Virus record (IMG/VR): IMGVR_UViG_3300027905_000001
Span: 15,362 to 79,361 of that record
Length of the DNA: 64,000 nt
Direction: 5' to 3' (one strand)
DNA from: a virus
Positions within the stretch are counted from its first letter, which is position 1, and each line of letters starts with the position of its first letter. The notes under the pieces are model-generated. The model was not told the origin of the DNA, did not search any database, and was given only the letters and a program-made list of their open reading frames with translations. This document shows, piece by piece, positions 3,870 through 43,645 of the stretch. The position numbers and the translations under genes were made by a program.

Positions 3870-4769
3870 CTAGATACTATCCTCAGCAGCCTTGCGCCGG
3901 ATCTCTAAGTCAGCCTCATTAACTGCGGTCCTGCGCTCTGCAAGTTTAAGATTAGCGTCATCAACTTTGCGCCGATGCTGATCCGGAGTGAGGTCAAAGA
4001 AGTCCGCCAGCCGGTCAAGTGCCTTATGCTTGTCGTGGAACTTAATAGAGATACCATCCTTAGTCTGCCGAATCTCCTGCACCATCGAAGTGTCCACCTG
4101 GTCGCTGTTTTTGATCCTAACGAAGTTGACATCCTGCACCTGGTACTGACCGTCCGGGCCGACTACGCGCTGGCCGTCGAGATATACCCAATCCTGAGTG
4201 GTCCCGAACTCAAAGAAGTCTCCAGGATCGGACATTGCTATTTTTTCGTAGACCTCCAGTACATCGCGCTTGGTAAGAAAGATGTCCTGAGCTATATCAC
4301 CTTTCAGCCGCCGGATCTCTGCCGCAACCTTAACGTCTCTTAACATCCGGCTGCCCTGGACATGTGCGCCGGCCTTTGGACACCCTGCTTTTATTGCGGC
4401 CATCGTTGCGTTGTGATCCTTGACAAAGTGTAGCGCGAATAGCTGCTGCTTTTCTGTGAGCGGCGAACTCTCTACTATATAATGCGTCTCGCTCCCGGCT
4501 GCTTCTTCCGGCCGTTTCTTTCCCTGGTCCGTTGCCGCTTTCTTCCGGCCGGACTTCTTGTCCGTTGCAACGCTCTTCTTTTGCGTTGCATTGCGTTGCT
4601 TGCCTTGCGTTGCGTTCTGCGTTGCATCGTTGGCCGCTTCTGCTTTGGCCCAGTTCTCTCTGTTCTTCCGGCTGCGGATCGTGCCCGCGCTGATTCCGTG
4701 TTTTGCTGCAAGGTCCCGAAGCGTAATCTCTGTCGTCTCGTATTCTGCGCGTATTACTAGCCAATCCAT
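3870..4769 (-). CDS. terS: Phage terminase small subunit (Terminase_2-like) with N-terminal HTH
   Basis: HTH ITLRDLAAKHGISAGTIRSRK; LTEKQQLFALHFVKDHNATMAAIKAG...SRMLRDVKVAAEIRRL resembles TerS DNA-binding core. Confidence 0.65.
   Translation of the reverse strand: MDWLVIRAEYETTEITLRDLAAKHGISAGTIRSRKNRENWAKAEAANDATQNATQGKQRNATQKKSVATDKKSGRKKAATDQGKKRPEEAAGSETHYIVESSPLTEKQQLFALHFVKDHNATMAAIKAGCPKAGAHVQGSRMLRDVKVAAEIRRLKGDIAQDIFLTKRDVLEVYEKIAMSDPGDFFEFGTTQDWVYLDGQRVVGPDGQYQVQDVNFVRIKNSDQVDTSMVQEIRQTKDGISIKFHDKHKALDRLADFFDLTPDQHRRKVDDANLKLAERRTAVNEADLEIRRKAAEDSI
4582..4625. repeat. Tandem octamer TGCGTTGC (4 copies) inside terS, encoding an NATQ-rich linker
   Basis: Direct count in sequence. 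Confidence 0.7.
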
Positions 4770-14183: not shown

Positions 14184-14603
14184 TTACATCTTTTCTGTTG
14201 TTTTGTCATACGCTTTCTCCTTTCGATAGTTCAACTCAAGCGTGGCGTAACCAATTATGTCGCGTATGGTGTCTTCTATCGCCTCGTCCTTTACTTGTGC
14301 AGGATTATTATCCAATTGTTCGATGCGGTTCAGCTTGTCCGATATGCGGATATAGAATCCTACCGGGCCATATTTGTCACGAAGTTGATCATAGGAATTT
14401 CCGTAGTCAGTGTTTTTACGTTCGATCAGATCAGCTATTGGATTAAGGATTTCGGAGAATTTGTTTTCCTTCGGAACTTCGATTGGCATCCAACATTTAA
14501 GCCTTGGGATGCATTGATTACATACTATCTGGGCATTATCATACTTACAGGTTTTGCACGTTTTATTGATCATTTTGTTCCCCCTTAGCATCGAATATCT
14601 CAA
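14184..14603 (-). CDS. Hypothetical protein with N-terminal CxxC pairs
   Basis: Track ORF. Confidence 0.4.
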   Translation of the reverse strand: MRYSMLRGNKMINKTCKTCKYDNAQIVCNQCIPRLKCWMPIEVPKENKFSEILNPIADLIERKNTDYGNSYDQLRDKYGPVGFYIRISDKLNRIEQLDNNPAQVKDEAIEDTIRDIIGYATLELNYRKEKAYDKTTEKM

Positions 14604-14766
14604 GCCTCTTCAGCTCCATCTCGCCATTGACAACTCGACTAAATATGTCGCAAAGGATAGCGTTGAGGTCGTTTCGACTTTTGATAGGCGTTGCTTCTGA
14701 TCGCTTACCGCTGGCCGGAATATCTCCTGCGTAGTATTTGCCGTTGATGGCTAGGATTTTATTCAT
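14563..14766 (-). CDS. Hypothetical small protein
   Basis: ATG overlaps MazG-like stop (ATGA); track ORF 14563-14841. Confidence 0.35.
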   Translation of the reverse strand: MNKILAINGKYYAGDIPASGKRSEATPIKSRNDLNAILCDIFSRVVNGEMELKRLEIFDAKGEQNDQ

Positions 14767-15293
14767 ACTTCCACAAAATATCCTTTCGAAATCAATTTCT
14801 TTTCGTGCAATATCCGTTGATCTTCGACCGATATCCCCCACTTATCCGCAATAGTATAGATCATCGTGACCGCACTCTGCGCAACGTCGAATGCCTCTTC
14901 GATTAATCTTAAAGGATTTCCTTCGCCCGTCTTAAGTCTCGGTTTCTCTCCGCTCATTTGATTATTTTTACCGATTACTTGAAGTAATTCCCCTAGCTCC
15001 TCAATCAACTTGTAGGTGCATGATTCGATAGTTGGTAGGAGTCCATTGAGTCGGTCGAAGGATATAAATTCTATGGCATCATCTTCTCTGCCTTTCGCCT
15101 CAAACCACTCCCCATCCAGACAAGTTTTCCCATCGCAATCAGGGTATTTTTTGCAGTTGTTGCAATCCCACTTTTGTTTCCACCCTGTTAAATCATAGAC
15201 CGTACAGGCCATACTACATGCTAATGTTTCGTGCTTGGCACAATTCTCGCATGTCATTTCTCGTTCTTGTCTCATTTCACCGCATTCTTTCAT
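14763..15293 (-). CDS. MazG-like nucleotide pyrophosphohydrolase with Cys-rich N-terminal extension
   Basis: YKLIEELGELLQVIG...LIEEAFDVAQSAVTMIYTIA resembles MazG EExxE helices. Confidence 0.45.
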   Translation of the reverse strand: MKECGEMRQEREMTCENCAKHETLACSMACTVYDLTGWKQKWDCNNCKKYPDCDGKTCLDGEWFEAKGREDDAIEFISFDRLNGLLPTIESCTYKLIEELGELLQVIGKNNQMSGEKPRLKTGEGNPLRLIEEAFDVAQSAVTMIYTIADKWGISVEDQRILHEKKLISKGYFVEV

Positions 15294-16855: not shown

Positions 16856-17374
16856 TTAATTGATATAATTTGACATTAATTTTGCCCCGGCTTCTTGTAC
16901 GACCTTAACCGCTTGTTCAAGTTCTTTATATACTCCTAGCCCTATCTGTTTTCGATTAATCATTAAGTAGGCTCGCCATTTTTTGGATGATTTGCGCCAA
17001 CTAACGCCCCTAAATCCTGAATTAGTTTTGCATTCTGCTTTTCTATTTTGCATGTTTACTGAATGAGTTACATTTCTAAGATTCCCTTTTGTATTATTTA
17101 ATGTGTCATGGTCAACGTGATCTACCACTAAATCATCGGGGCAATTGGTTATTAATCGATGTAGGCGTTTTGGTTTCAATCCTTCGCTAATCGACACATT
17201 ACTTATGGCATAAAACGAACTTGTCCCTTCAGACCAAAGAGCATGCCACTTTGCACCACCTTTTTGGGCTATCTCTAAATCCTCCCTATCAATTAAAGTT
17301 TCCATCACAGATCCATCTTCTCTATCTAAAAATATTGCCACTTTATCCCCTCTAAATTCGAATCTGTTTTTCAT
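16856..17374 (-). CDS. HNH homing endonuclease with AP2 DNA-binding domain
   Basis: HNH block LVVDHVDHDTLNNTKGNLRNVTHSVN; AP2-like FRGVSWRKSSKKWRAYL. Confidence 0.7.
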   Translation of the reverse strand: MKNRFEFRGDKVAIFLDREDGSVMETLIDREDLEIAQKGGAKWHALWSEGTSSFYAISNVSISEGLKPKRLHRLITNCPDDLVVDHVDHDTLNNTKGNLRNVTHSVNMQNRKAECKTNSGFRGVSWRKSSKKWRAYLMINRKQIGLGVYKELEQAVKVVQEAGAKLMSNYIN

Positions 17375-18266: not shown

Positions 18267-18671
18267 TTAGATCAAGTATCCTTTTCCCTTGCAACATTCG
18301 CACACCTTCCATTGAGTACACATACCCAAGTCGATAAACCAACCCTCAAGAACCTCGGTTACCTTTAGCCCCATGCCTTTGTCACCCACCTCTTTTGGCT
18401 GTTTCGAACAAGGACTTATATTGCTATCACACTCACATTCATCGCACTCTTCACAGGCAGTAACCATCGGCATCTTGTCCCACAATATGGATTCCGGCGT
18501 TGCTGTGCATTTTTGCTCACCAAGCATTTGCTTTATCGCTGGATTAAGATTAATTGACCAAAAAAGCATAGCCTTGTTATCCTCATCGTGCCTTAGTGGA
18601 TGCTTGCCTAAGTAAATGTGAGTCGGTCCACCTTCGAATTCGTTGATTATTCTTGGATTCATTTTAAACAC
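18267..18671 (-). CDS. Cys-rich hypothetical protein
   Basis: Track ORF; CEECDECECD and CECCKGKG clusters. Confidence 0.4.
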   Translation of the reverse strand: MFKMNPRIINEFEGGPTHIYLGKHPLRHDEDNKAMLFWSINLNPAIKQMLGEQKCTATPESILWDKMPMVTACEECDECECDSNISPCSKQPKEVGDKGMGLKVTEVLEGWFIDLGMCTQWKVCECCKGKGYLI

Positions 18672-18687: not shown

Positions 18688-19383
18688 CTATTGTCCTATT
18701 GGTTCGCTTATTTTCTCGAATTCCAGTACATACACCCACGGATTTAAGCCCCATCCGTAGCCTCGTTTTTTGTTTAAATTATCCCAAAGTTCACTAAATG
18801 CATCCCTGGCCGTGAGATCAAATTCGGCAACATCGTCAAATTTTCCATCACCTATTTTGTCGTGAAAATCAATACAACCTTCGCTTCTTGCGTCTTCCTC
18901 AGTTATGATCTGCAACCTCTCGGCTCTAATATTTGTCACCTTCAGGAATAACCTAGCGGCTTTGCGTGGCATATAGATCGATGGCCGCCAGTAGTTAAAA
19001 TGCTCAGGGTTATCATCTGCCCTGTATACTATTGGGCAACCTTCAAAATCGTCGATATCAAGTTTTCCAGTTACTACCCGATAGTCCATATCAAGCTGTG
19101 ACCACGTTTCTCGAACCCAAAGGATATCTCCGACATCACGGGGTATTTTGCAATAATGACTTACCCGCCCATTATCCGACTCCCAGCACACGCACCCCTC
19201 GTTTTTGGAATTTGTCGAACTCGTGATTCTGCCAATAATATGATAATTTTCAGGCGGTTGATATTTAACTACTCGCCTTGTTTGAGTTTTCCTCCCTTCC
19301 AGAATCGCATTAATGGACTCACTAGAAAAAATTATCGGCTTTTCTTTAATCATTTTTTGCTCCTTTCTAGGCCCTCTATCCAT
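18688..19383 (-). CDS. ASCH/PUA-like domain protein (putative)
   Basis: IIFSSESINAILEGRKTQTRR ... GDILWVRETW; assignment from memory. Confidence 0.35.
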   Translation of the reverse strand: MDRGPRKEQKMIKEKPIIFSSESINAILEGRKTQTRRVVKYQPPENYHIIGRITSSTNSKNEGCVCWESDNGRVSHYCKIPRDVGDILWVRETWSQLDMDYRVVTGKLDIDDFEGCPIVYRADDNPEHFNYWRPSIYMPRKAARLFLKVTNIRAERLQIITEEDARSEGCIDFHDKIGDGKFDDVAEFDLTARDAFSELWDNLNKKRGYGWGLNPWVYVLEFEKISEPIGQ

Positions 19384-19469
19384 CTCGCCTTATAGTTTTG
19401 TACCTATTTTAATTTATCCAAGCCCTAGCACCACTCTATGGCCCTCTCATAGGATTATGCTCACTCCCA

Positions 19470-20129
19470 TCATGCGCGGATTACTCGCAATAACATCTCC
19501 TCAAATTCAATCTCCCTCAGCTCTCGAAGCGACCTTATGTTATCTCCCACGACAACCCATGCTTGCTTTATTTTTTCTTCAAGGCCAAAGTTCTCGTCAA
19601 TATTTGCCATGATTCTGTCCATGACTTCTTCCGTTTCCTCGACTTCTCGCGCGGTCCATGTTGGTTCTGGTTCGGCTAGGTCGCCAACATCATGATACAA
19701 ATATGATTCATCCTCAACTTTTTCGTCGAAACATTCTGCTTCATATGTCCCGTAACATTCTGAAACTTCGCTTTGTGATGTTTTAGGTTCGACTTTACCA
19801 ACTTCCGCACAATCATCCACCCCCTCACTCTCCAACGCCTCAGACACATCTTCTCGCTCTTCTACGGCAACCTCAGCCACTTCCTCCGCACTCTCTTTAA
19901 CTTGCTCGATGACCACCTTTCTTATCTTGATCTTCGCGTTAGCCTCCAACCCTTTTTTAAGCAAATAAGCTACACTTGTGCTAACGTCATACTTTCGCGC
20001 TACGTCGATGGTTAGCCCAATCGCGTTAAACTGTTCTATTGTTGTTATTTCTGCTCGCAATTTGTTTGCATTTTCAGATATTTTTGACATGTTCAGCCTC
20101 CTCATTCTTGTTATAGTTGCGTTTTCCAT
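19470..20129 (-). CDS. Acidic hypothetical protein with N-terminal HTH-like segment
   Basis: Track ORF. Confidence 0.4.
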   Translation of the reverse strand: MENATITRMRRLNMSKISENANKLRAEITTIEQFNAIGLTIDVARKYDVSTSVAYLLKKGLEANAKIKIRKVVIEQVKESAEEVAEVAVEEREDVSEALESEGVDDCAEVGKVEPKTSQSEVSECYGTYEAECFDEKVEDESYLYHDVGDLAEPEPTWTAREVEETEEVMDRIMANIDENFGLEEKIKQAWVVVGDNIRSLRELREIEFEEMLLRVIRA

Positions 20130-20340
20130 TGTCTGAGTATCCTAATTCGTCCCAATCGAAGATACCCACGTTCGAGCCCATGTCATGTTTGGCTCTAAAA
20201 TTGCAGATCCTTTTGGTGTTGCATCGTAATTCCTCCGCTATTTGCCTGTCTGTAAGTCCGTTTAGCCATAGTTGCTCGATAGCTTCAGCTTCCATAGGGC
20301 TTATTGATTGTGCCATTTTCATTTTGTACCTCCCTAACAA
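20074..20340 (-). CDS. Small HTH protein (sigma-70 region-4 / LuxR-like)
   Basis: LTDRQIAEELRCNTKRI. Confidence 0.4.
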   Translation of the reverse strand: MLGRYKMKMAQSISPMEAEAIEQLWLNGLTDRQIAEELRCNTKRICNFRAKHDMGSNVGIFDWDELGYSDNGKRNYNKNEEAEHVKNI

Positions 20341-20668
20341 GTTTTACTCCATAAAAATCCATCAACTTCGCACATGTAGGGCAAGGTATAGGATCAACCT
20401 CATCAGCGCATACTAGATACAACTCTGCACCTTCAAGGCTTTCCCTCGCATTAATGAGTGCCATTTGCTCTGCATGCACACTAGAACATTCGGCGTAATC
20501 TCCTACGTTATGCTCTATATCCAATCTGGAGCACGTAACGCATGTTGTAGGGCTTGTATTCCATCCCTTTGATATAATCTGACCATGCAGGACGATTACG
20601 CATGCGTAGCGACGCTTGAGGCAGTTCGAGCAGGGTAATAGTTTTCGTGCTTCGTCGAAGTAGTTCAA
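20285..20668 (-). CDS. Cytidine/dCMP deaminase-fold zinc enzyme
   Basis: VHAEQ (H-A-E) and PCPTC (PCxxC) about 28 residues apart; start overlaps radical-SAM stop by 4 nt. Confidence 0.6.
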   Translation of the reverse strand: MNYFDEARKLLPCSNCLKRRYACVIVLHGQIISKGWNTSPTTCVTCSRLDIEHNVGDYAECSSVHAEQMALINARESLEGAELYLVCADEVDPIPCPTCAKLMDFYGVKLVREVQNENGTINKPYGS

Positions 20669-21390
20669 ATGTTACCCTCCATAGCTTTTCTCAAATCATC
20701 CTTGATGTAATAATTGCACCCGTGCATCTTAAGTACCATTTCGACATTCTCGCCAGTCTGTTTCCAGTCAATCTGATTCGCTCTTGAATCGTAATTCCAG
20801 CGACCAACTTTCCAAAGGTCAACGTGTTTATGGAGAATATGGATAAAGTCAAGTGCATCGGCAGGAATGATGATAGGCTCAAGACTTACCCATGTTTTTA
20901 TTCCAAGCGTTCTTGCCGTTATGATGGCAGCTATTCGATCATCTACGGGTGCTGCGCCTTTTTCCCACCGTTCAGAGCATTTGCGGACAGTCAAGGTTGT
21001 CCCGAACGAATCACCCTTTTCGTACAAGCTAAAATCTCTACTCGCCCTCATGCCGCCTTTTGTTAGAACGGTGAAGTTTGCTCCTGCGTTTTTGATGGCT
21101 TCGATAATTTCTTTGGTTGGAGTTGTGTCAATATCGCAATAAGGATCTGTTGAAAAGCATAGAAGGATATTCTTGCCTTTGAACTTACCGCTTGATAATT
21201 GCTTTTTGGTCGCTTCAACTATTCCTTCGCGCGGTTTAACGTCAGCGAAATCTTCGTTTGGTTTCCATCTGTCGTGCATCTTTTTGGCAAAGCAATAAGT
21301 ACATAAATGTGAACATCCCTCGTAGATATTAAGAGCTAAGGGTGCATATTCAAGAGCTTTTCCGCTCGGCTTATAAATCGGATTGATCAT
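20665..21390 (-). CDS. Radical SAM enzyme (SplB/COG1533-like N-terminus)
   Basis: CxxxCxxC within LNIYEGCSHLCTYCFAKK. Confidence 0.65.
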   Translation of the reverse strand: MINPIYKPSGKALEYAPLALNIYEGCSHLCTYCFAKKMHDRWKPNEDFADVKPREGIVEATKKQLSSGKFKGKNILLCFSTDPYCDIDTTPTKEIIEAIKNAGANFTVLTKGGMRASRDFSLYEKGDSFGTTLTVRKCSERWEKGAAPVDDRIAAIITARTLGIKTWVSLEPIIIPADALDFIHILHKHVDLWKVGRWNYDSRANQIDWKQTGENVEMVLKMHGCNYYIKDDLRKAMEGNI

Positions 21391-21405
21391 ATTCTTCCTC
21401 CTCTA

Positions 21406-21588
21406 TTAGTCCCTATAGGCTTTTATACACTTCCCGATATCCATTTGCGTACCTGCACTTTTTGCAAGAACTGAACCCACTAACACGGAATCAAGGAATT
21501 CCCTAGCCTTCTTAGCTTCGTCGGGCGTTAGGTAATCTCTATATGTTTTTCGTGGCTTTTTGAATTGTCGGGCTGTTTTACCGAGCAT
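21406..21588 (-). CDS. Hypothetical small protein
   Basis: Track ORF. Confidence 0.3.
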   Translation of the reverse strand: MLGKTARQFKKPRKTYRDYLTPDEAKKAREFLDSVLVGSVLAKSAGTQMDIGKCIKAYRD

Positions 21589-21600
21589 GGCTTGCCCCTC

Positions 21601-22455
21601 CTAATCTTTTTTTGTCCTGTGGTCAAAATCTTTGGCAAATAATAAATGATCTACCGTCATGCCTAAAATCCTAGATACTGTAGCCTCGCCGTAATCTCCT
21701 AATCTTTCTTCAAGTGGTTTGGGGTAGTAGTTCGTCGTAAACCCCGTCAATAGATTGGCGCGATACCTTAGATCAATCAGCCGGTAATACATCGCTTGCA
21801 CCCATTCTGTGGGTTTTTCCTTGCCGACATCGTCCAAGATCAGAGCTTGAGCCTTGGCTAAAGTTTCAATCTTTGCCTCCATGCCACTTTCGTTTTTCCT
21901 GAACTGAGCATCCCTTAACTCTGCAAGTAAGTCGGCAGACGATACAAACACAACCTGCACCCCTTTATCAAGCATGTCCTTGGCGATAATGCTGGCTAAC
22001 ATCGTTTTCCCTACTCCTGGATTTCCGAGCAATAAAAACCCTTTGGCGTCCGATTCACTTTTGATTAATTCAGGCCATAGCTTTAAGTAATTAATTACAC
22101 CCTTGTGCATGTTTCGGTTTCCGTCGTTGACTTTATAATTAGCAAGGCTGTATCTGAGCTGTTGAGATGTTAGCCCGGATGATTTTAGTTTTCTGGCCGC
22201 GTTCTTCTTAATCTTACAAACACACTCCTTGTAAAGCGTTAGTCCGTATAAGTCTTTTTCATCAGTGGCAACTATCTCCCGATCTTCACAATCAGAGCAG
22301 TTATATTTCTTTTCGACAGGTTTTAAACTGTATCCAGATGTTCCAGTGTTGAAAAGGTTAAGTCTGTTCCTAACTTCTTCCTCTGAGGATTTCGGAGAGT
22401 ATGGGGTCCGTTTCCCAAGGTTTAGAATCTCCTTGATCGATTGAATTGCTTCCAG
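21601..22455 (-). CDS. DnaC/IstB-like AAA+ helicase loader; canonical start missing
   Basis: Walker A GNPGVGKT, Walker B LILDD; first ATG at 22110, but frame stays open upstream to 22477 with no ATG/GTG/TTG; AGGGAGG precedes CTG at 22455. Confidence 0.6.
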   Translation of the reverse strand: MEAIQSIKEILNLGKRTPYSPKSSEEEVRNRLNLFNTGTSGYSLKPVEKKYNCSDCEDREIVATDEKDLYGLTLYKECVCKIKKNAARKLKSSGLTSQQLRYSLANYKVNDGNRNMHKGVINYLKLWPELIKSESDAKGFLLLGNPGVGKTMLASIIAKDMLDKGVQVVFVSSADLLAELRDAQFRKNESGMEAKIETLAKAQALILDDVGKEKPTEWVQAMYYRLIDLRYRANLLTGFTTNYYPKPLEERLGDYGEATVSRILGMTVDHLLFAKDFDHRTKKD

Positions 22456-23290
22456 TTTTGTTACCTCCCTTGGCTTTTAAGTTCTTGCCCCATTTAACAC
22501 AATTTCCCAGCCACGTATTAATCTGTGATCTTGGTTTACTTTTTACATCAAGCGGCTTATCTAGTTTGTCGAAAGACCAGTCCTTAATCGCTCCCAAGAT
22601 ATCTATGGTTGGGTATCGTTCTTGAAGCTCTCGGTACATTTTCAATTCCTTCGCCCTGTCAATCGGATAATCCTTAACTTTTTCAAGTGTGCGAATTAGG
22701 TCTATTTCATCAGGCAGAAGAATGAGATCATTTTCTTTTCTTTCTTTTACTTCCTTTCCTTTACTATTCTCTTCTTTAGGGATTTCTGTAGGAAATAATC
22801 CATCTTCAAGAGGATTAATGTCTACATTAACTACAGATGGTAGGTTGTTACCGTCAACATAAACCATATTTACAGTAAAATTATCAGTTTGCTTAGGTGG
22901 AGAAATAAGTAGATATTCAGATATGAGCGTTATCTCTTTGCGTCTTTCTACAGATTTGAAGTATCTTTTTTGGATTCCTCCGCTAGTAAGTATTTCGTAT
23001 TTTAGATACAAGGATGAATTGAAAAATTCCCACTTAATGCAATCAGAAACTATCTCGGTGATAATATTAATGTCTACATTAACCTTACTGGAGAGTAGTA
23101 ATTGTTCGCGCTCTGTCCATTTATAGAAATATCCTTCCTTATATATTTTCATAAGAAGTTTGATTAAAACCGCAAATCCAGTGATCTTATGCTTTGCTTC
23201 AATAAGCAAAACTTTGTCGTCTTGGTCCATGTCAATATCGAGGGGAAAATAATCCAATCCCTCTTTTTGCGGTCTTGCCAAGTCATTCAC
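22370..23290 (-). CDS. Replication initiation / replisome-organiser protein (DnaD-like)
   Basis: N-terminal DYFPLDIDMDQDDKVLLIEAKHKITGFAVLIKLL typical of phage replisome organisers. Confidence 0.55.
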   Translation of the reverse strand: MNDLARPQKEGLDYFPLDIDMDQDDKVLLIEAKHKITGFAVLIKLLMKIYKEGYFYKWTEREQLLLSSKVNVDINIITEIVSDCIKWEFFNSSLYLKYEILTSGGIQKRYFKSVERRKEITLISEYLLISPPKQTDNFTVNMVYVDGNNLPSVVNVDINPLEDGLFPTEIPKEENSKGKEVKERKENDLILLPDEIDLIRTLEKVKDYPIDRAKELKMYRELQERYPTIDILGAIKDWSFDKLDKPLDVKSKPRSQINTWLGNCVKWGKNLKAKGGNKTGSNSIDQGDSKPWETDPILSEILRGRS

Positions 23291-23501
23291 CTTCCACTAA
23301 AGAAAAAATATCATCATATGGAATATCAAGCTCCTCAGCTATCTTCTTGGCTGTAGCAGGACTAGGGTTGAATCTGCCCTTTTCGATTGCATAAATACTT
23401 TCCTTGGACACTCCAACCTTCTTGGCTAAATCTGCAATTGACACGCCTTTTCTTATCCTTAACTCCGCTAATTTAGCTCGGTCGGTTTTAATTTTTAACA
23501 C
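23283..23501 (-). CDS. HTH XRE-family transcriptional regulator
   Basis: ELRIRKGVSIADLAKKVGVSKESIYAIEKG. Confidence 0.65.
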   Translation of the reverse strand: MLKIKTDRAKLAELRIRKGVSIADLAKKVGVSKESIYAIEKGRFNPSPATAKKIAEELDIPYDDIFSLVEGE

Positions 23502-23581
23502 TTACTTACCTCCGTTTCCTTAATCATCCTACTTATACATTATAACATATACTTGTACAAGTAACAATCAATAGGTATAAA

Positions 23582-23852: not shown

Positions 23853-25079
23853 TTACTCGACCCCTATTCTAGCCCTTGCAATACCCGCATAAGCTTTTTC
23901 TTTGTCAATTCCGATAAAATGGCAACCTACACCCTTTGCGGCCAATGCGGTTGTGCCTGATCCAATAAAGGGGTCTAGCACCGTACCGCCTTGAGGTGTG
24001 ACAAGTTTAATTAAGTACTTCATGAGATCAAGGGGCTTTACGGTAGGGTGATTATTACCTTCGCCCCGTTCCCTCTTGGAGGCCTTAGCACAATAAAAGA
24101 ATCTACTTGCCCCTCCCGAATCGCCATAACTAATCATTTCCGTTCCCTCTGGACGACTTTCTCTTGCGTAAGCATTAGCCTGATAACCTTTACTTGATAC
24201 TCCCTTTTTAGCTCCAGTTCCACTTTTCAGTATGCCTGTTTGCTCATCCAGAACTGCAGCTGCTACTTCATCAAAAATTATGTTTGCGGGAAATCTTCCC
24301 AATGGATTACTTTGGCTTTCTGTTAAGTTGGTTCCCTTTCCGTTTCCATATACTGTATTTGGTGTACGTGGTGGTCTACCTCTATCGTCATTGGTCCCTA
24401 TTCGGCTATCGTTGATATTGATCCCACCTGTTCCCCATTTAAGAACATTAGCCGCCACTGTCTTTTCGCTTAATGGTTTTCTGGCAACTACAATAGGTTC
24501 ATGCGCAGGTTTTAGAGCCGTACCCCAACCGTCCCATTGCTTTGCTTCATCAGTTTGAGCATCTAGATCGAATGTTCCACCCAACTCATACGATGCTGGC
24601 CTATCTCCCTGCTCTAAATGGATGTTATTGAAACCCATCCCTTGCTGCTGAAAATTAGTCTTTTCCAGCTTGCAGTAATCCTTTGTATTAGCTGACCCGT
24701 AAAGCAGTTTACCTTCAATACCCTTGGCAATGTTGTAAGACTTAGGGAATCCACTGCCATAAATCCACATGATCTGATCCCTGATCTCGAATCCAGCGTC
24801 TTCAATAGCACAAGCCATTCGGTGGTATGTTCTGCTCCCACCGAAGGATAGTAGATATCCCCCAGGCTTTAGTACACGTAAAAATTCTTTCCACATTGCA
24901 ACGTTGTAGGCAATTCCGGTATTGTCCCAAGACTTCCCCATGAATCCCAATTCATAAGGCGCATCCGTTACGCCAGAATCTATACTATTTGCGGGTATTC
25001 CCTTCATAACTTCCAGGCAGTCACCTAAAATAATTGAATCAAGCAAACTTTTACCCCTCCCTTTACTCAGCCTGTCCAC
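23853..25079 (-). CDS. DNA methyltransferase (N6-adenine / N4-cytosine beta-class)
   Basis: N-terminal TDAPY (DPPY-like) and C-terminal VLDPFIGSGTT (FxGxG), in beta-class order. Confidence 0.65.
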   Translation of the reverse strand: MDRLSKGRGKSLLDSIILGDCLEVMKGIPANSIDSGVTDAPYELGFMGKSWDNTGIAYNVAMWKEFLRVLKPGGYLLSFGGSRTYHRMACAIEDAGFEIRDQIMWIYGSGFPKSYNIAKGIEGKLLYGSANTKDYCKLEKTNFQQQGMGFNNIHLEQGDRPASYELGGTFDLDAQTDEAKQWDGWGTALKPAHEPIVVARKPLSEKTVAANVLKWGTGGININDSRIGTNDDRGRPPRTPNTVYGNGKGTNLTESQSNPLGRFPANIIFDEVAAAVLDEQTGILKSGTGAKKGVSSKGYQANAYARESRPEGTEMISYGDSGGASRFFYCAKASKRERGEGNNHPTVKPLDLMKYLIKLVTPQGGTVLDPFIGSGTTALAAKGVGCHFIGIDKEKAYAGIARARIGVE

Positions 25080-26625: not shown

Positions 26626-27219
26626 TTAAAAAGGATAAAGTTCTAGTGGAATATTTCTTCCAGCCTCCGCGATTACAACAATTTTTCCTGTCAACTCTTC
26701 GATTTCTCTAACCATTCTTTCTGCGTTGGAATTGCTGTCTGATAAATGAAGTAGCACTATCTTCTTCACTTGCGACAAATCATTAGCTCGCAAAAACTCT
26801 TTGACATGCTCAAGTGAAAAATGGCTTTCGAGTAGTCGGTTTTTCATGCTTTGGGGGATGTAGCCAGCTTCAATGTTTGCGTCAAGGGTATCTTTGCAGT
26901 AGTTTGATTCTACAAGGATATAATTTAGTGAATTAAAACGATTGCGAATATAGTAGGTATCCGTACAAAAAATAAGTTTTTCGCTGGTTGGTTTGTATTG
27001 AATTAGGTAGCCGAAAGGCTGATCGCAATCATGTTGAGTGTCGAACGGTAAAACGATGAAATCTCCAACTTGAAACTGTACGCCAGCGTCAACCATTTGT
27101 GTTCTGTGGCTCTGAGATATGCCTATTTGCTTGGCTGTTCCGGAAGAGGTATAAATATCTACACCCGCCTTAATAACGTCCTTTGCGCTTCGTGAATGGT
27201 CAAAGATGTTCGTGGGTTA
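26626..27219 (-). pseudogene. MBL-fold (YycJ-like) metallo-hydrolase missing its N-terminus
   Basis: Frame open 37 codons upstream of first ATG (27096) with no RBS; starts ...NIFDHSRS where HxHxDH is expected; downstream blocks ESHFSLEH, LLHLSDSNSN. Confidence 0.5.
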
Positions 27220-27318
27220 TTAGGCACCCACGGATACGAGATAGATTAAAATCTAGGGATTGTTGTATTTTTTTAAAAGAAACTCCACATTCAATTAAAA
27301 GAGAACCGGTGTCGCTTT

Positions 27319-27939
27319 CTAAAACATAGCCATTTGCCCTTGATGACGAACTGATAACCTTGAGGTGCATTGTACTTTCCCCTTTCTCTCTTTAAATCTC
27401 CAAATGAATCCTCCAGCTTGTTTCCTAGTTAATCCTGGTTTGTATTCTGTCTCGCTTGCAACTTGAAGAATGTTCCTTCCGCATACTCCAGTTAACCTAA
27501 AGGCCTCTTGAGCGTTGGGATATTCGGCTAGTAGCTCGCCATTTAGGTTGTATTGTTGAATGGCATTAGGTCTTATGAATTTGTTGTATTTATTCATTCC
27601 TTTTAGCATGTTTGGATGAATAGATATTGCATGGATAACATTTTCGCTCCCAGATACCCACTCTAGGTTTTCAACCTTGTTGTTTTGCTTATTGCCATCC
27701 TTGTGATTTATCTGAGGCTTATTATTGACGTTGGCTATAAAAGCTTCAGCAACAAGTTTGTGAATTCTCGCATACCTTACACGTCCTTTATGAGTAAGGA
27801 CTACGGAAAGATAATCCTTTTTACTGTTTTTATTAGACAAGATAAACCCTTCCCTTAATTTCTTGAAGCTTTTCAACCTACCCTTGGTTGATATTTGATA
27901 TACACCCTCAAATCCCTCAATATCTTTCCATAGTTCCAA
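27319..27939 (-). CDS. HNH homing endonuclease (NUMOD4-like N-terminus)
   Basis: WKDIEGFEGVYQIS; HNH block INHKDGNKQNNKVENLEW; TTG start after GGGAGGTG. Confidence 0.7.
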   Translation of the reverse strand: MELWKDIEGFEGVYQISTKGRLKSFKKLREGFILSNKNSKKDYLSVVLTHKGRVRYARIHKLVAEAFIANVNNKPQINHKDGNKQNNKVENLEWVSGSENVIHAISIHPNMLKGMNKYNKFIRPNAIQQYNLNGELLAEYPNAQEAFRLTGVCGRNILQVASETEYKPGLTRKQAGGFIWRFKERKGKVQCTSRLSVRHQGQMAMF

Positions 27940-31019: not shown

Positions 31020-31415
31020 CTATTTCCCATCCTTTTCAGTTTTATTTTTCCACCACAACGGAAGATTTCTCCTAAACAAGGGCTTATCTCCATCCCAACC
31101 GTCGATATTATAAATCGGTATCATCTCCATTAACGCGACATTATGCTCCCTATTGCACCCTTCCGACTGCTCCCAAGCCCCGCATAAAAATATTGCATCG
31201 CAGCTACTTACAAGCTCCTCGCAAAAGGTCAGAGCTAATGCTCGTTGTTCTGGTACTTTGTCGCTGAGATAGGAAAAAGAGTGAACTGGCGAGATTGGGA
31301 TAACGCCGAACTTTGTTAATGCTTGGCAGATGTGCGTGATGGCTTGGAGGTTTTGCTTTTTGCCGTTGAAGGGGTGGCAGATATACACTTTTTTCATAAT
31401 TGTCCTCCTTCGCAT
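31020..31415 (-). CDS. Nucleoside 2-deoxyribosyltransferase-like fold protein (putative)
   Basis: KKVYICHPF ... AIFLCGAWEQSEGCNREH; weak similarity from memory. Confidence 0.3.
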   Translation of the reverse strand: MRRRTIMKKVYICHPFNGKKQNLQAITHICQALTKFGVIPISPVHSFSYLSDKVPEQRALALTFCEELVSSCDAIFLCGAWEQSEGCNREHNVALMEMIPIYNIDGWDGDKPLFRRNLPLWWKNKTEKDGK

Positions 31416-32042: not shown

Positions 32043-32990
32043 TCATGTTAGTTTTTTACCAATTTCCAAGATAACTTTGGTAGTGCAAGCGTCACCAGCT
32101 CCTCGATACATTTGTGTGTCGCTAATTCCTGCAAGCATGACCTTATCTATGATTAAGTCAGATATGCTCTGAAGCCTCCAAAACTCACGAGGAGTTAGCC
32201 TTCTTAATCTTCCTTCAATAAGTATCTTGGGTTGCCTATTCCCGCCTTCACAGGGGGTTATGCAAGGACTTAAGCCATCAATTCCATATACTCTGCGAAT
32301 ATTGTCTTGACCATGTATATCCAGCATCCCGATGACATTAATCATTGTCATACCGCTGTGATTTCCCCCGCTATGTCCCCCTGCCGTTAATGTTCTAGCA
32401 ACTGTGGTTTTTGTTGACTTGCCGATTGTAGAATATTCGTTAACTTCGTATTCGAGAGGAAATACTTTTCCAGTACCTCGTCCTCTAAGATGTCCGACAG
32501 TGAACACCCTCTCCCGATTTTGTGGGACTCCGAAGTTTTTGCTGTTGAGCAGTTCCCACTCCACGTCATACCCCAGTGCGTCCATTTGATAGAGTATTTC
32601 GAGGTAGTCAAATCCTTTATTGCTGGATAGCATTCCCTTAACGTTTTCATAGAGAATATACTTGGGTCGATATTCTTCTGGAGTCTCCCTGACGAGTCTA
32701 AATACTTCTGAAACAAGAGAACTTCTGTCTCCCTCAAGCCCTGCTCGCTTTCCTGCAATACTAAAGTCTTGGCAAGGTGCTCCGAAGCACCACATGTCTG
32801 CCCTTGGAATGTCTGTAGCATTAGTTGCTCTAATGTCTGCACCTTCTGGCTCCTTCCCAAAAATTATTTTGTATATTTGTCGTTTGTGCTTGTCCCATTC
32901 AACCGAGTAAACACATTTATGTCCAGCTTGCTCCATGCCCATTCGGATTGTGCCGATTCCACAGAAGAGATCGATGAAGGTTAAATTCAT
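32043..32990 (-). CDS. DNA (cytosine-5)-methyltransferase
   Basis: Motif I DLFCGIG, motif IV PCQDFS, ENV, QNRERVF. Confidence 0.85.
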   Translation of the reverse strand: MNLTFIDLFCGIGTIRMGMEQAGHKCVYSVEWDKHKRQIYKIIFGKEPEGADIRATNATDIPRADMWCFGAPCQDFSIAGKRAGLEGDRSSLVSEVFRLVRETPEEYRPKYILYENVKGMLSSNKGFDYLEILYQMDALGYDVEWELLNSKNFGVPQNRERVFTVGHLRGRGTGKVFPLEYEVNEYSTIGKSTKTTVARTLTAGGHSGGNHSGMTMINVIGMLDIHGQDNIRRVYGIDGLSPCITPCEGGNRQPKILIEGRLRRLTPREFWRLQSISDLIIDKVMLAGISDTQMYRGAGDACTTKVILEIGKKLT

Positions 32991-37292: not shown

Positions 37293-37308
37293 TAAGTAAT
37301 ATTAACGC
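37293..37308. promoter_or_regulatory. Operator-like motif, copy 2 (overlaps cro-like stop codon)
   Basis: gtaagtaatattaacg. Confidence 0.5.
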
Positions 37309-37544
37309 AATGCGTCCAACACCGCCTCGGATTGGGCTTCCATTTCTACGTCTGGGAACAACTCGTTAACTGGAGTATCAAACAAGAAAGATAGCTTCAG
37401 CATTAACTTGCCACTAGGCGTTGCGTTGCCGTTCTCAATATACCTTATCATGGTCCCAGTAACTCCGACGGCAGCGCCTACTTTATCCTGTGTGCCATAG
37501 GCTCTTCTTAGTTGTTTGAATCTTTCTCGTTTATGTCTTGTCAT
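37302..37544 (-). CDS. Cro-like HTH XRE-family regulator (first gene of leftward early operon)
   Basis: AYGTQDKVGAAVGVTGTMIRYIENG; divergent from CI-like gene. Confidence 0.6.
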   Translation of the reverse strand: MTRHKRERFKQLRRAYGTQDKVGAAVGVTGTMIRYIENGNATPSGKLMLKLSFLFDTPVNELFPDVEMEAQSEAVLDALR

Positions 37545-37582
37545 TCTGTATCACCACCTTTGTCCTTGATAGAATATTATCA

Positions 37583-37598
37583 CGTAAATCATATTAAC
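37583..37598. promoter_or_regulatory. Operator-like motif, copy 3, in divergent promoter region
   Basis: gtaaatcatattaacg; -10-like TATACT at 37612-37617. Confidence 0.5.
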
Positions 37599-37645
37599 GC
37601 AATATGTAAATTATACTTTCTTTTATGGAAATGAGGAAAATATTT

Positions 37646-37984
37646 ATGATTATCGGTATGGGCAGTAGAATTAGAGTTCTTCGACTTGAACGAGGGTTAA
37701 CACAGGACCAAATGGCATATAAACTGGACATGAATCGTGCGAATTTCTCACATTACGAAAGAGACACATCTTCCCCACCGTGCGAAGTTCTGGTCAAAAT
37801 AGCTGATATTTTAAATACAACTACAGATTTCCTTCTTGGACGCACAGATACTAATCCACCCGATGCTGCAACAATCAAACAACTACAAGGAATTAATGAA
37901 TTACCGCAAGACAAGAGAAGATTTGTAATAAATATAATAAATTCGATTATTTCAGAAATAATCGAAGAGGCTAAGGAGGAATAG
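37646..37984 (+). CDS. CI-like HTH XRE-family repressor, coupled to integrase
   Basis: RBS GAGGAAAA; VLRLERGLTQDQMAYKLDMNRANFSHYERD; stop 3 nt before integrase ATG. Confidence 0.6.
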   Translation: MIIGMGSRIRVLRLERGLTQDQMAYKLDMNRANFSHYERDTSSPPCEVLVKIADILNTTTDFLLGRTDTNPPDAATIKQLQGINELPQDKRRFVINIINSIISEIIEEAKEE

Positions 37985-37986
37985 GT

Positions 37987-39465
37987 ATGCATGGAATACT
38001 ATACCTGCGCAAAAGCAGAGAAGATGAGCAATATGAAAAAAATACTGGCGAAGATGTTCTGCAAACCCATCGCGAACGTTTGGTTATGCTCTGTAAGTCG
38101 CGGGAAATTACCTTCGACGAACGCGCAGAGGTACGAAGCGGTGATACGATCGCAGGTCGGCCTAAATTTCAGAATATACTAGATACGGATCTCCCCTCTG
38201 GTCAATACTCTTGTATCATTGTTACTGAAATTTCTCGACTTGGCAGAGGGGACATGGAGGATGCAGGAAGAATATACAAAACCATAATCCACAACGAGAT
38301 TAAGATTGTCACGCCGAATAAAATATATGATCCGTTAAACCCTTCCGATCTTCGCCAGCTAAGGTTCGAGCTATTCATGTCTCGGGAGGAATACGAAAGC
38401 ATTAAGGAAAGACTATGGAATAATAGAAATTACCGGGCAACACAAGGTTATGCCGGCAATTATATTGTCACGCTCGGTTTTCGCCAGTCCAGGGGGATAG
38501 TCGAGATAATCCCCGAAGAGGAAAAATTAGTGCTTGAAATATTTACGATGCGCTCTGAAAATTACTCCTATCAAGAAATAGCGGATTACTTTAATTCCAG
38601 AAATTTAAAGACAAAACGCGGAACAAAGTATCATGAATCTACAATATATAAGATATTAAAAAATCCCAGGTATATAGGAGTGGCTAAGTGGCAAGGCAAG
38701 GAATATATAGCTAAGCACCCTGCGATAGTCTCATTGGACCTATGGAACTCTGCGCAGGATATCAACGCTGAAAGACATCACAAGAGACGAGGGTCAAAAA
38801 ACGATAACCCTTATCTAGTAGAGCTATACTGTCGAGAATGCGGGCAAAGGATGTACGGGGAACGCTCTACCCCGCAAAGGGTAATAGATGGTGTTCGAAA
38901 GCTATATAAAAGCAGAGACATCTATATTTGTAGGGGCAGAAAAAGCATCCCTAAATGTTGGCACCACATAGGAGCCAGCGTTGTTCACTCGACCATCCTT
39001 GATGAGCTTGGGAAGATAATATCAGATCCGCAGATTTTTCTTGAGTTAGTCAACGAGAGAGAATCAAGACTTGGCGTCGATACTAATGGTTTATCAGATC
39101 AAGTGGATGAATTAAATAAGCAAGTCAAGGATAAAAACATCCTTTTGGTAAAAATAGAGAACGATTATGAAAAAGGCGACCTATCCGCTTTGCTATATAC
39201 TAAACACGTTGAAAAAATATCCAAAGAAATAGCATCTATTGAAGGTAGGATAAAAAAAATTAAGGCCGATTTATTAAAATCAGCCATTAAGATTAGTCCT
39301 CCTATGGAATTACAATCAATTTTGAAAACATTCCTAAATAACTGGAACGCCTATCCTAATAGTGACAAGAAGCTCATCATTAGATCATTTCTTCCCAGGG
39401 TTGAGGTGAACAAGCAGGGTGAATTCTTTATCGCTATTACTTTGCCTGATTCTATCGAAATTTAG
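37987..39465 (+). CDS. Large serine recombinase (phage integrase, serine type)
   Basis: N-terminal resolvase-type catalytic domain (YLRKSREDE), recombinase domain, Cys-rich zinc ribbon, C-terminal coiled coil; 492 aa. Confidence 0.8.
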   Translation: MHGILYLRKSREDEQYEKNTGEDVLQTHRERLVMLCKSREITFDERAEVRSGDTIAGRPKFQNILDTDLPSGQYSCIIVTEISRLGRGDMEDAGRIYKTIIHNEIKIVTPNKIYDPLNPSDLRQLRFELFMSREEYESIKERLWNNRNYRATQGYAGNYIVTLGFRQSRGIVEIIPEEEKLVLEIFTMRSENYSYQEIADYFNSRNLKTKRGTKYHESTIYKILKNPRYIGVAKWQGKEYIAKHPAIVSLDLWNSAQDINAERHHKRRGSKNDNPYLVELYCRECGQRMYGERSTPQRVIDGVRKLYKSRDIYICRGRKSIPKCWHHIGASVVHSTILDELGKIISDPQIFLELVNERESRLGVDTNGLSDQVDELNKQVKDKNILLVKIENDYEKGDLSALLYTKHVEKISKEIASIEGRIKKIKADLLKSAIKISPPMELQSILKTFLNNWNAYPNSDKKLIIRSFLPRVEVNKQGEFFIAITLPDSIEI

Positions 39466-39515
39466 CAAACGGGAAACCTTCCGACAATTTCAAAATAGGG
39501 AAGGTTTCCCGTTTG
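39466..39515 (+). terminator. 17-bp perfect inverted repeat after integrase stop (terminator or att-site candidate)
   Basis: caaacgggaaaccttcc / ggaaggtttcccgtttg around a 16-nt loop. Confidence 0.5.
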
Positions 39516-39520
39516 CGGTT

Positions 39521-39784
39521 TTATATCTTTCCTTCATATAATAAGGATTTCAAGAGTTCTATTCCGTCATTGAATCCCTGCTTATATGTATTTTCCAGAA
39601 GAGCATCCACTCTTGATGTTGATAATTCTTCATAGCGATCAAAAATATTTCTTTCCTTACCCAGTAATCTTATTATGTCAACGCTCAAGGAAATGGATTC
39701 TTTTATCCACTCACTGTAATCAGTTGTTTCTTTTGTTTTTTGATAAGCAACGCCAAAGATTCTTTCCGGCATCAGCTTGTCCAT
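39521..39784 (-). CDS. Hypothetical protein
   Basis: Track ORF. Confidence 0.3.
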   Translation of the reverse strand: MDKLMPERIFGVAYQKTKETTDYSEWIKESISLSVDIIRLLGKERNIFDRYEELSTSRVDALLENTYKQGFNDGIELLKSLLYEGKI

Positions 39785-40194
39785 GATAATATCAAGTATT
39801 TTTTCAGTCGGAATATTTTTTTCAATATCTATATCCTCATCTCCTGCCTGAATTTATGTTTTACCAGTCTCTATATACTAGAACGTGTGTTCTTAATTTT
39901 CAAGGGGTAATTTGTCGCAAAAGAAATAAATCGTTTCTCTTCCCCTTTCTCTCGCTACCCGTAGGAACAAAGTCCTACAATCAGTCCTAGATATAATTCA
40001 GAATATTTATTTAAGTTATTGACAGTATACGCTATAACGTTTGTCGAAATCGCGTGAAATAAAGGAGGCCAAATGTGAATATTTTGTGATTATAAATTAT
40101 ACTTAAGTCTACATATTATAATACCTGCTACATTTTTGTGTTAGCAGGATTAATCCTATCCTCTGTGGAAGTATTTTCCTATGGTGGTGAGGCG

Positions 40195-40416
40195 ATGGAT
40201 TTAGAAGATAAGTTAAAGGATAACAAAATACAATACATACTAGACAAGCGTGATATGTCGCAAAAAGACCTTGCCGCAACGCTCGGGTGGTGGCCGAGTG
40301 ACATAAGCGACATCGTTAACGGTAAGGTTAAGCGCCTTACGCTCATTCGCGCTTCGATGATATCCGTTGCTCTCGGGTATTCGGTTGAGTATATTTGGCC
40401 TACTTTATTCAAGTAG
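40195..40416 (+). CDS. HTH XRE-like regulator
   Basis: ATG after GGTGGTGAGG; MSQKDLAATLGWWPSDISDIVNGK. Confidence 0.5.
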   Translation: MDLEDKLKDNKIQYILDKRDMSQKDLAATLGWWPSDISDIVNGKVKRLTLIRASMISVALGYSVEYIWPTLFK

Positions 40417-40431
40417 GCCAAATATTTTTTT
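40396..40431 (+). terminator. Rho-independent terminator overlapping gene 3' end
   Basis: 9-bp stem tggcctact/agtaggcca then T-run. Confidence 0.65.
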
Positions 40432-40553
40432 ATATTTTTTTAGTCATAAAATTAGACTTTCGTCTATATACTTTATCACACCCAGTAAGCCACCGTCACA
40501 CCACGTCTTACACTATACTACGCCAGTCAGACAAAATTTTGAGAGGTGAGAAT

Positions 40554-40760
40554 GTGAAGAAAAGAAGAACTTTTTGGGACGGAGATGATCTTTGCTCAAA
40601 GCTAGACGCAATACCAGAAAATGAACTAAGTACCATAATCCGCATGGCACTACGAGCATGGTTTAAGATCGACAGCAAGCCCGAACTAACCGTTACCGAC
40701 GCAAGGCAGATAGCGCAGGAGCTGGTAAGGCAACGCAAAGTTGAAAGGAGCGAACGCTAA
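40554..40760 (+). CDS. Ribbon-helix-helix-like small protein
   Basis: GTG start after GAGAGGTGAG; RRTFWDGDDL...STIIRMALRAWF. Confidence 0.4.
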   Translation: MKKRRTFWDGDDLCSKLDAIPENELSTIIRMALRAWFKIDSKPELTVTDARQIAQELVRQRKVERSER

Positions 40761-40921
40761 TGTTCTGGAAGAAATCCATTAAAGCCTCCAAACTCTCAGG
40801 GCTTATCAAGGAAATAGCTAAGGCGGCATCATTAGTACCTTATGGGGATGGCGCGCTGGACTTAGGTTGGGAGGAACTAACCGTCAGTGATCTACTCGAA
40901 TGGATGGAGGAAAGTTTATAG
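40760..40921 (+). CDS. Hypothetical small protein (53 aa)
   Basis: TAATG coupling to upstream gene; not in track. Confidence 0.35.
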   Translation: MFWKKSIKASKLSGLIKEIAKAASLVPYGDGALDLGWEELTVSDLLEWMEESL

Positions 40922-40938
40922 GAAGTGAGGTTGAAATA

Positions 40939-41166
40939 ATGGACATAACTAAAATCCAAAAAATCGTTCGCAAGGCTATCAAGGACTACGCCATTACCGC
41001 AAAGTACGATGAGGAAATTCTAGTATCATTTCTCAGCGTGGATATTTTCCGGGAGATCAACGAGGATTCCCCGGCACCTCTCTCGGATCCCAAGGCTCCC
41101 CCTCGCCGCAATACTAACCAGAATGCATTAGGTCTGGTAAATCACGAAGCAGGTGAAACGCCATGA
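40939..41166 (+). CDS. Hypothetical small protein
   Basis: ATG after GTGAGG. Confidence 0.4.
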   Translation: MDITKIQKIVRKAIKDYAITAKYDEEILVSFLSVDIFREINEDSPAPLSDPKAPPRRNTNQNALGLVNHEAGETP

Positions 41167-42491: not shown

Positions 42492-42614
42492 TTGTACTCA
42501 ACGATTCAATGCGCTTTATAGGCTCCTTTGGTCATGCCGTGCGGTCCGTAAAGTGCTTTATTATCCTTACTTTTTTATTTTGTATTTATTTTATATTTTT
42601 GCGAGGTGAAAATT

Positions 42615-43244: not shown

Positions 43245-43248
43245 CACC

Positions 43249-43467
43249 ATGGGTAAACTAGGAAAAGTGACCACAAAGGCCACCTATGGAATCCTGAATC
43301 TGGCGATGAAACCTATTTACGATCAGATGAAAAAAGAGAGAAAAGAAGAAGTTAAAAGATGGAACAAATCGCTAGATATAGCTTCTCAGGATGCAATGGC
43401 CGAGGCTAGATATTTTGAAGTAAGGCAGCCGTTTGATTCGATTATCCACAAGCACCCATTGTGGTAG
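43249..43467 (+). CDS. Hypothetical small protein
   Basis: Track ORF. Confidence 0.4.
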   Translation: MGKLGKVTTKATYGILNLAMKPIYDQMKKERKEEVKRWNKSLDIASQDAMAEARYFEVRQPFDSIIHKHPLW

Positions 43468-43490
43468 TAATGACAATAGTAATGACTTTT

Positions 43491-43570
43491 AGCCCCTTCG
43501 TAAACCGAGGGGCTATTTTAATGCCCTGACATAACGAAACCCCAGCATTTGCCGGGGGTTAGTTTTTATT
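43491..43570 (+). terminator. Two tandem hairpin terminators
   Basis: agccccttcg...cgaggggct + ATTTTAAT; aaccccagc...gccgggggtt + AGTTTTTATT. Confidence 0.55.
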
Positions 43571-43645
43571 CTCTATTATTTATGGCTATTCGGATTATAT
43601 GGTGGAAAATGAGTTTGGAATTTCCAGTTTTATAATAAATAATTA

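Follow-up and report, generated by a model that had tools for sequence, protein, structure and literature searches.

The locus and its prophage setting

Two overlapping reading frames occupy positions 20285 to 21390 of the window, a term used here for the whole 64,000-nucleotide stretch of viral DNA that was analysed. The first (20665..21390, minus strand) starts with ATG and encodes a protein of 241 residues that includes the stretch LNIYEGCSHLCTYCFAKK, in which C26, C30 and C33 form a CxxxCxxC motif for binding a [4Fe-4S] cluster (21292..21315, minus strand), accompanied by Y32 and F34. The second (20285..20668, minus strand) starts with TTG and encodes a protein of 127 residues, in which the deaminase zinc motif H65-A-E67 ... 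P95-C96-x-x-C99 (20372..20476, minus strand; located by regular expression) is present as VHAEQ and PCPTC. A preliminary description of the locus, made from the sequence, had read these as a radical SAM (rSAM) enzyme and a CDA-fold deaminase, and both assignments are upheld: the coordinates of both are exact, the Pfam profiles PF04055 (Radical_SAM) and PF00383 (dCMP_cyt_deam_1) match the respective ORFs above their curated cut-offs (35.6 bits versus 29.5, and 39.1 bits versus 25), and the motifs are invariant in the corresponding family alignments, A1 and A2 (in the former, C26, C30, Y32 and C33).

The 4-nt overlap between the two frames is likewise confirmed. At the junction (20665..20680, minus strand; GGAGGGTAACATTTGAAC), the TTG of the deaminase gene (20668-20666) overlaps the TGA of the rSAM gene (20667-20665) to give TTGA; the deaminase start codon is TTG, not ATG, and a Shine-Dalgarno sequence, GGAGGG (20680-20675), lies 6 nt 5' of it (GGAGGG-TAACAT-TTG-A). 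We consider this start call sound, because an in-frame TAA is found two codons 5' of the TTG and the short-form homologs of the deaminase share its start residue (MINYFDEARK...). A truncated protein, as the NCBI label 'fragment' would have it, was ruled out on the grounds that several homologs begin at the same residue.

Candidatus Desulfosporosinus infrequens encodes a protein that shares 100% identity with the rSAM protein. The high-coordinate end of the prophage carries a serine recombinase (plus strand) and cI/cro-like genes at ~37-39 kb, which are separated by anti-repressor-like genes from a C5 DNA methyltransferase (32043-32990). Following the minus strand from there, the order is a DUF4406-like gene; an SbcC-like ATPase and a RecT-like gene; a free-standing NUMOD4-HNH gene and a frameshifted MBL-fold gene; an N6/N4 methyltransferase (23853-25079); an XRE regulator, a Lin1244/DnaD-like replication protein and a DnaC/IstB-like ATPase; then a 60-aa ORF, rSAM and the deaminase. 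Beyond the pair come a small HTH gene, an acidic 219-aa protein, an ASCH-like 231-aa protein and SSB; HNH-AP2, RecU, a MazG-like gene (14763-15293) and DUF1599; a gene taken to be late-regulator-like, to which no profile matches; and the small terminase (3870-4769). The two DNA methyltransferases and the MazG-like gene had been pointed out previously as the surroundings of the pair, and correctly so, the MazG-like label being given by inference only, with no Pfam or NCBIfam match. NCBIfam and Pfam scans of the neighbours at 18267-18671, 18688-19383, 19470-20129 and 21406-21588 returned no match, nor did a megablast search of positions 19000-23500 against deposited phages. The GC content of both genes is in line with that of the prophage and gives no signal of horizontal transfer.

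A promoter-like site is located 5' of the XRE gene (23539..23567, minus strand): TTGTTA-17-TATAAT with a TG extension and 10/12 matches, which is a match to the consensus only. Only this one promoter-like site was found and, between 23700 and 19300, no terminator-like site on the minus strand, so that both genes probably belong to one long transcription unit that would start there.

A probable short-form dCMP deaminase

The 127-residue protein is very probably a compact, zinc-dependent dCMP (deoxycytidylate) deaminase, and as such an unremarkable addition to a known family, as judged from sequence profiles and a predicted structure. In alignment A2, H65, A66, E67, P95, C96 and C99 are invariant, and SNC-x-R and G[WY]N motifs are conserved. 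Among phage protein families, PHROG 174 ('dCMP deaminase') matches with E 2e-22; in a profile search of the PDB, the enzymes of cyanophage S-TIM5 (4p9c; E 5.7e-15) and Streptococcus mutans (E 3.7e-13) are followed by those of T4 and human, all of them dCMP deaminases, with TadA appearing only at E 0.0086. The structural comparison gives the same answer: when Foldseek was run with the AF2 model (pLDDT 85), dCMP or dCMP/dCTP deaminases took all of the first 15 places (the best with E 1.2e-7 and 29% identity), and cytidine deaminases, RibD and TadA rank below them. Against the ComEB equivalog TIGR02571, the protein scores 19.3, below the cut-off of 219.45.

With the known enzymes (S-TIM5, 4p9c; T4 Cd, 1vq2; S. 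mutans ComEB, 2hvv; human DCTD, 2w4l), it has in common the CDA fold, the HAE/PCxxC zinc site and both motifs named above, SNC-x-R and G[WY]N; unlike them, it is only 127 residues long, shorter than all four, and it has additional conserved cysteines (C16, C23, C43, C46 and C61) that may constitute a second metal site. In related phages, relatives of the deaminase are found at the equivalent position, and in two of the contigs that encode them a ThyX gene is found within 5 kb, one of these also having a dCTP-deaminase/dUTPase gene. Homology and these nearby genes of the relatives suggest that the enzyme would convert dCMP to dUMP and so supply thymidylate synthesis as the phage replicates its DNA. 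The window holds no credible thymidylate synthase, the sole ThyX-like RHRxxS match being in a 151-aa overlapping ORF at 9684; therefore, the dUMP would go to the host enzyme.

The radical SAM protein and its possible substrates

The 241-residue protein is predicted to be a [4Fe-4S]/SAM radical enzyme and belongs to a large compact family that is catalogued but uncharacterized. Its PF04055 score and a (beta/alpha)6 partial TIM barrel place it in the Radical SAM superfamily. The family comprises 954 clusters (at 50% identity) at E<=1e-30 and 3529 at E<=1e-10, with 413 relatives in IMG/VR. Its members reside mostly in phages and prophages of anaerobes, from largely anaerobic habitats (gut, sediment and peat): Clostridia, Oscillospiraceae and Desulfo- lineages predominate among the hosts, with some methanogens and Dehalococcoidia; contigs assigned to Methanosaeta, Methanosarcina, Dehalococcoidia and Desulfovibrio are among those that carry it. 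Distant relatives are found in Bacteroidales phages and in an Acidianus virus. Across the 35 homologs of alignment A1, the invariant residues include, in addition to the cluster cysteines C26, C30 and C33, those of C78-F-x-x-D-P-Y, T110-K111, E143, S169-x-E-P and Y227-Y-x-K-x-D-L. A PDB profile search with the family gave no significant match (best E 0.06), a fold search of BFVD yielded nothing beyond viral rSAM proteins that were unnamed or generic, and the best phage-family match is PHROG 13321 ('unknown function'). In the literature on DUF5131, on SplB-like phage enzymes and on rSAM/ParB/methyltransferase/ASCH contexts, we found neither a characterization nor any biochemistry for this family.

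By its sequence profile, the protein is placed in the clade of spore-photoproduct lyase (SPL), PA0069, Rv2578c and phage M6 gp53. Its best NCBIfam matches are the uncharacterized rSAM families Rv2578c (52.4 versus a cut-off of 430), PA0069 (46.7 versus 360) and 'radical SAM mobile pair B' (36.8 versus 410). Many family members carry precomputed matches to both PF04055 and DUF5131 (PF07505, phage Gp37/Gp68), which is likewise uncharacterized, the latter scored by the present protein at 21.2 versus a cut-off of 28.9. As it falls below the curated cut-offs of all four, we regard it as representing a separate compact subfamily. In RadicalSAM.org, DUF5131 is assigned to Megacluster-5-2, which adjoins SPL in Megacluster-5-3 (PMC9477430).

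A close parallel of described function is M6 gp53, an SPL-like rSAM enzyme shown to isomerise N-alpha-GlyT in DNA; as of 2021, it and SPL were the only two rSAM enzymes described as acting on DNA (PMC8989533). The family aligns to gp53 over 154 columns (hhalign; E 3.6e-5, probability 71%), which is better than its alignment to the SPL of Geobacillus thermodenitrificans (SplB; PDB code 4fhc), and the two share the cluster motif, DP[YF] and an [EN]PV strand. Like the protein studied here, gp53 is phage-encoded, lies in the same clade and gives identical sub-threshold NCBIfam matches. It differs in its length of 480 residues, with ~120 additional N-terminal and ~200 additional C-terminal residues, in having Ser at the position of C78, and in its setting: its neighbours, a PLP enzyme, a thymidylate-synthase homolog and a DNA polymerase, form a hypermodification cluster, and none of these is present in the window.

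The genomic associations of the family point in the same direction as its clade. Fusion proteins include Prim-Pol+D5_N+DUF5906+rSAM, rSAM+Prim-Pol, rSAM+ParB_N and an intein-bearing member, with two further fusions in the loci L095 and L153; some of these metagenomic fusions could be gene-calling read-throughs. Of 157 loci, 71 have a ParB-like or DNA-methyltransferase gene within +-5 genes of rSAM, and 20 have an ASCH-like gene there; the ParB and methyltransferase neighbours may just be what this part of a phage genome usually contains. In the cultured Parabacteroides phage PDS1, the distant homolog gp34 sits between SSB and ASCH/MazG genes. Based on the clade, the fusions to primase-polymerase/D5-helicase and ParB-N domains, and the frequent ParB and DNA-methyltransferase neighbours, we lean slightly towards a role for rSAM on DNA. 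The enzyme would cleave SAM reductively to generate a 5'-deoxyadenosyl radical, and this would abstract a hydrogen from DNA, its substrate, at replication or thereafter, resulting in repair or in post-replicative base remodelling. SPL and M6 gp53 both begin their radical chemistry at the C5 substituent of thymine inside DNA. In the present family, a hydrogen-return relay like that of SPL could involve the Y32/Y34 pair together with the invariant C78.

Three more specific or competing assignments have to be set against this. That the protein is a true SPL seems improbable to us, although a phage of a spore-forming host would benefit from an enzyme that repairs 5-thyminyl-5,6-dihydrothymine in its own DNA or that of the host, and although a comparison made with the true 4fhc sequence aligns the two (hhalign E 7.7e-4; 14% identity) and brings together the cluster motif, Y96, Y98, D143 and the EP...R motif of SPL with their counterparts. 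In this alignment, the C90/C94/Y96/C97/Y98 segment of SPL falls on the CxxxCxxC region, with Y32 on Y96 and F34 (Y in the family consensus) on Y98, the two tyrosines of the SPL relay. The catalytic cysteine that serves SPL as hydrogen-atom donor is C140/C141; here, C140 aligns to F79, one residue away from the invariant C78. Moreover, the alignment covers residues 80-240 of SPL, leaving its N-terminal ~80 and C-terminal ~100 residues unaligned (241 residues versus 341); the SPL model TIGR03886 scores only 13.8 bits versus a cut-off of 437.55, and the ~340-residue architecture of that model is absent. Additionally, the Methanosaeta, Methanosarcina, Dehalococcoidia, Desulfovibrio, Bacteroidales and Acidianus lineages among which the family or its distant relatives occur are not known to form spores. 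We rejected the identification as SPL on architecture, score and host range. A substrate other than DNA is also rather unlikely, though less so than SPL activity: the protein would then be a glycyl-radical activase of the PFL-AE/NrdG type, a modifier of RNA or protein, or an uncoupled SAM cleaver, whereas sequence profiles consistently favour the SplB/PA0069/Rv2578c clade and the fusion partners are DNA-replication and ParB domains. The activase in particular was rejected, as neither NrdD nor another glycyl-radical enzyme was seen in the window or among the recurrent neighbour clusters. At about the same low level of likelihood we place a replication-associated DNA-modifying enzyme that would install or remodel an undescribed base by radical chemistry, by analogy with M6 gp53; it would possibly act together with the products of the flanking ParB-N and methyltransferase genes and, in this prophage, might additionally use dU-type substrates from the neighbouring deaminase.

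Adjacency of the two genes

The preliminary description had proposed that the two genes form a translationally coupled, nucleic-acid-modifying unit, and had itself made the proposal depend on their being conserved together. We compared 80 viral and 80 genomic loci encoding relatives of rSAM, three more for its closest relatives, and seven loci encoding close relatives of the deaminase, by means of phmmer, the A1 and A2 family HMMs and the regular expression [HC]AE...PCxxC applied to all six-frame ORFs. The pair is absent throughout: a deaminase accompanies an rSAM-family gene in 0/160 loci (within about +-6 kb), and an rSAM gene accompanies a deaminase-family gene in 0/7 (+-5 kb). The gene that follows rSAM belongs to 77 different clusters across the loci, the commonest occurring in only four.

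The stop/start overlap is generic, being routine both in this prophage and 3' of rSAM in other phages. Five of the 58 adjacent same-strand pairs in the prophage overlap by 4 nt and three by 1 nt; elsewhere, the rSAM stop codon overlaps the following gene by 4 nt in 22/94 loci. The same holds for the relatives with 81, 77 and 71% identity, where the overlapping gene encodes a sigma-70-like 205-aa protein (two loci) or an unrelated 135-aa protein (the third). The synteny, in turn, locates a break between the two genes. One phage locus (L169) matches the upstream block, namely the DnaD-like (57%) and DnaC-like (89%) proteins, the small ORF and rSAM (77%), whereas two others (L164 and L167) match the downstream block, from the deaminase (65-71%) through the small HTH, 219-aa and ASCH-like proteins to SSB (up to 88%). 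The switch in similarity between these two phage groups falls exactly at the rSAM/deaminase boundary. This boundary is a mosaic joint, and the adjacency of the genes stems from modular phage recombination.

Given the absence of co-occurrence, the mosaic joint and the generic overlap, we are highly confident that rSAM and the deaminase do not make up a conserved unit. Of the role in nucleic-acid modification that had been suggested for them, what stands is a plausible one for rSAM alone, by virtue of its clade, fusions and neighbours; the joint role does not. Lack of co-conservation is, however, no proof against cooperation of the two products in this one phage.

A dedicated two-enzyme pathway would nevertheless have some attractions. 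In such a pathway, a uracil-type product of the deaminase (dUMP, or dU in DNA) would serve as the substrate that rSAM modifies, and hypermodified phage DNA or a counter-defence product would result; the genes are adjacent on the same strand, with the 4-nt overlap placed behind a good Shine-Dalgarno sequence, and the alignment of the rSAM family to gp53 recalls the precedent of 5-hmdU-derived hypermodification, in which a phage dCMP deaminase gives dUMP and M6 gp53 remodels the base (PMC8989533). Against it stand not only the counts, the mosaic joint and the overlap statistics given above, but also the gene content. The window yielded none of the partners that the known pathway requires, namely a thymidylate-synthase-like dUMP hydroxymethylase, 5-HMUDK, aGPT-Pplase, a PLP decarboxylase and a phage DNA polymerase, whereas M6 has its thymidylate-synthase homolog, PLP enzyme and DNA polymerase near gp53. 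More generally, no M6/ViI-type thymidine-hypermodification gene was detected by Pfam searches of 20 neighbouring ORFs and inspection of the called ORFs in the window, the small ORFs being profiled in part. The phage uses DnaD/DnaC-like loaders and, therefore, depends on host replication. For defence components, a PADLOC scan gave marginal matches only (PDC-M30B, E 0.0082; a dCTPase core motif, E 3.5e-5 over 40 residues). DNA hypermodification by the pair, as had been envisaged, thus lacks the other known genes of such pathways in the window, and we judge the two-enzyme pathway very improbable.

The explanation that we prefer, and which as a whole we hold to be reasonably probable, is that a temperate phage is integrated in Candidatus Desulfosporosinus infrequens and that both genes are independent accessories in its replication module. 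Recombination between phage modules would have set them side by side; they would be co-transcribed, and possibly translationally coupled, to no greater extent than most neighbouring phage genes, with no step joining the two enzymes.

The evidence speaks for a routine phage dCMP deaminase gene and a separate accessory gene having come to lie next to each other through ordinary phage mosaicism, not for a new pathway, and the boundary provides a clean worked example of how a start/stop overlap can mimic functional coupling in phage genomes. The remaining point of interest is the rSAM family itself, which is large, well conserved and experimentally untouched, and whose small proteins are encoded by phages and prophages of largely anaerobic hosts; the study of one of its members could uncover new DNA repair or modification chemistry.

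Cysteines of the radical-SAM protein and the deaminase

Position 81 of the radical-SAM family, within the motif C-F-x-C-D-P-Y, is a cysteine in at least 90% of the aligned members; the corresponding residue of the window protein (21148-21150) is a threonine, as it is in P0002, its closest relative. A cysteine that is otherwise almost invariant, located beside the putative active site, has been lost in this lineage. In the adjoining dCMP deaminase, five further cysteines (C16, C23, C43, C46 and C61; window 20486-20623) are conserved across the family outside the catalytic zinc site. Some dCMP deaminases have a second metal site with a structural role, and these cysteines may provide one here.

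The domain of the window radical-SAM family is also found in two giant ORFs among the comparison loci. That at L153:5983-12192 encodes a 2069-residue deltaproteobacterial protein carrying two additional CxxxCxxC modules, which, as we read them by eye, would be a DUF1848-like radical-SAM module and a third module resembling spore photoproduct lyase. The other, a 1077-residue Methanosaeta protein (L095:2766-5999), has a primase/helicase-like N-terminus fused to the radical-SAM domain.

Nucleotide-pool, MBL-fold and homing-endonuclease-like genes

Nucleotide-pool genes are scattered through the prophage: a DUF1599 ('nucleotide modification associated domain 1') gene at 14184-14603, a MazG-like gene at 14763-15293 whose product is Cys-rich at its N-terminus, and a DUF4406/DUF7768 gene, nucleoside 2-deoxyribosyltransferase-like, at 31020-31415. 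The first two are present also in relatives that lack the radical-SAM gene.

A metallo-beta-lactamase (MBL)-fold gene on the minus strand (26629-27370) is split by a frameshift at approximately 27202-27206, close to its HxHxDH motif: when the intact homolog from the comparison locus L001 is mapped onto the window, its residues 1-55 fall in frame -1 and residues 57-246 in frame -2. The split gene is either a pseudogene or an assembly error in the MAG. Two free-standing homing-endonuclease-like genes, both on the minus strand and each flanked by conserved genes, combine NUMOD4 with HNH_3 (27319-27939) and HNH_3 with AP2 (16856-17374). The former has a RecT-like gene on one side and the split MBL gene on the other; in the L001 relative a similar HNH gene is on the opposite side of the MBL gene.

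Further mobile elements in the window

The window contains more than one mobile element (37300-48800 and 49300-63800). A plus-strand block adjoins the serine recombinase and cI/cro switch of the prophage; plus-strand genes here encode an FtsK/TraG-like Walker-A protein (41163-42491) and, on our own reading, a putative replication protein (42606-43244). Beyond this block, the minus strand carries a tail-fibre and lysis block, including a 1041-residue protein (60660-63785). This second block resembles the terminal part of another prophage or of one that has been rearranged.

ASCH-like neighbours of the radical-SAM family

A 231-residue ASCH-like protein is encoded on the minus strand at 18688-19383; searches of Pfam and NCBIfam returned no match to it. 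Its homologs (cluster C9, represented by L137:8112-8870) recur near members of the radical-SAM family and, together with two other ASCH-like clusters, are present in 20 of the 157 radical-SAM loci. In the cultured Parabacteroides phage PDS1, moreover, an ASCH-domain gene comes after the distant radical-SAM homolog. The association between the two families may be a real functional one, or it may be merely positional.
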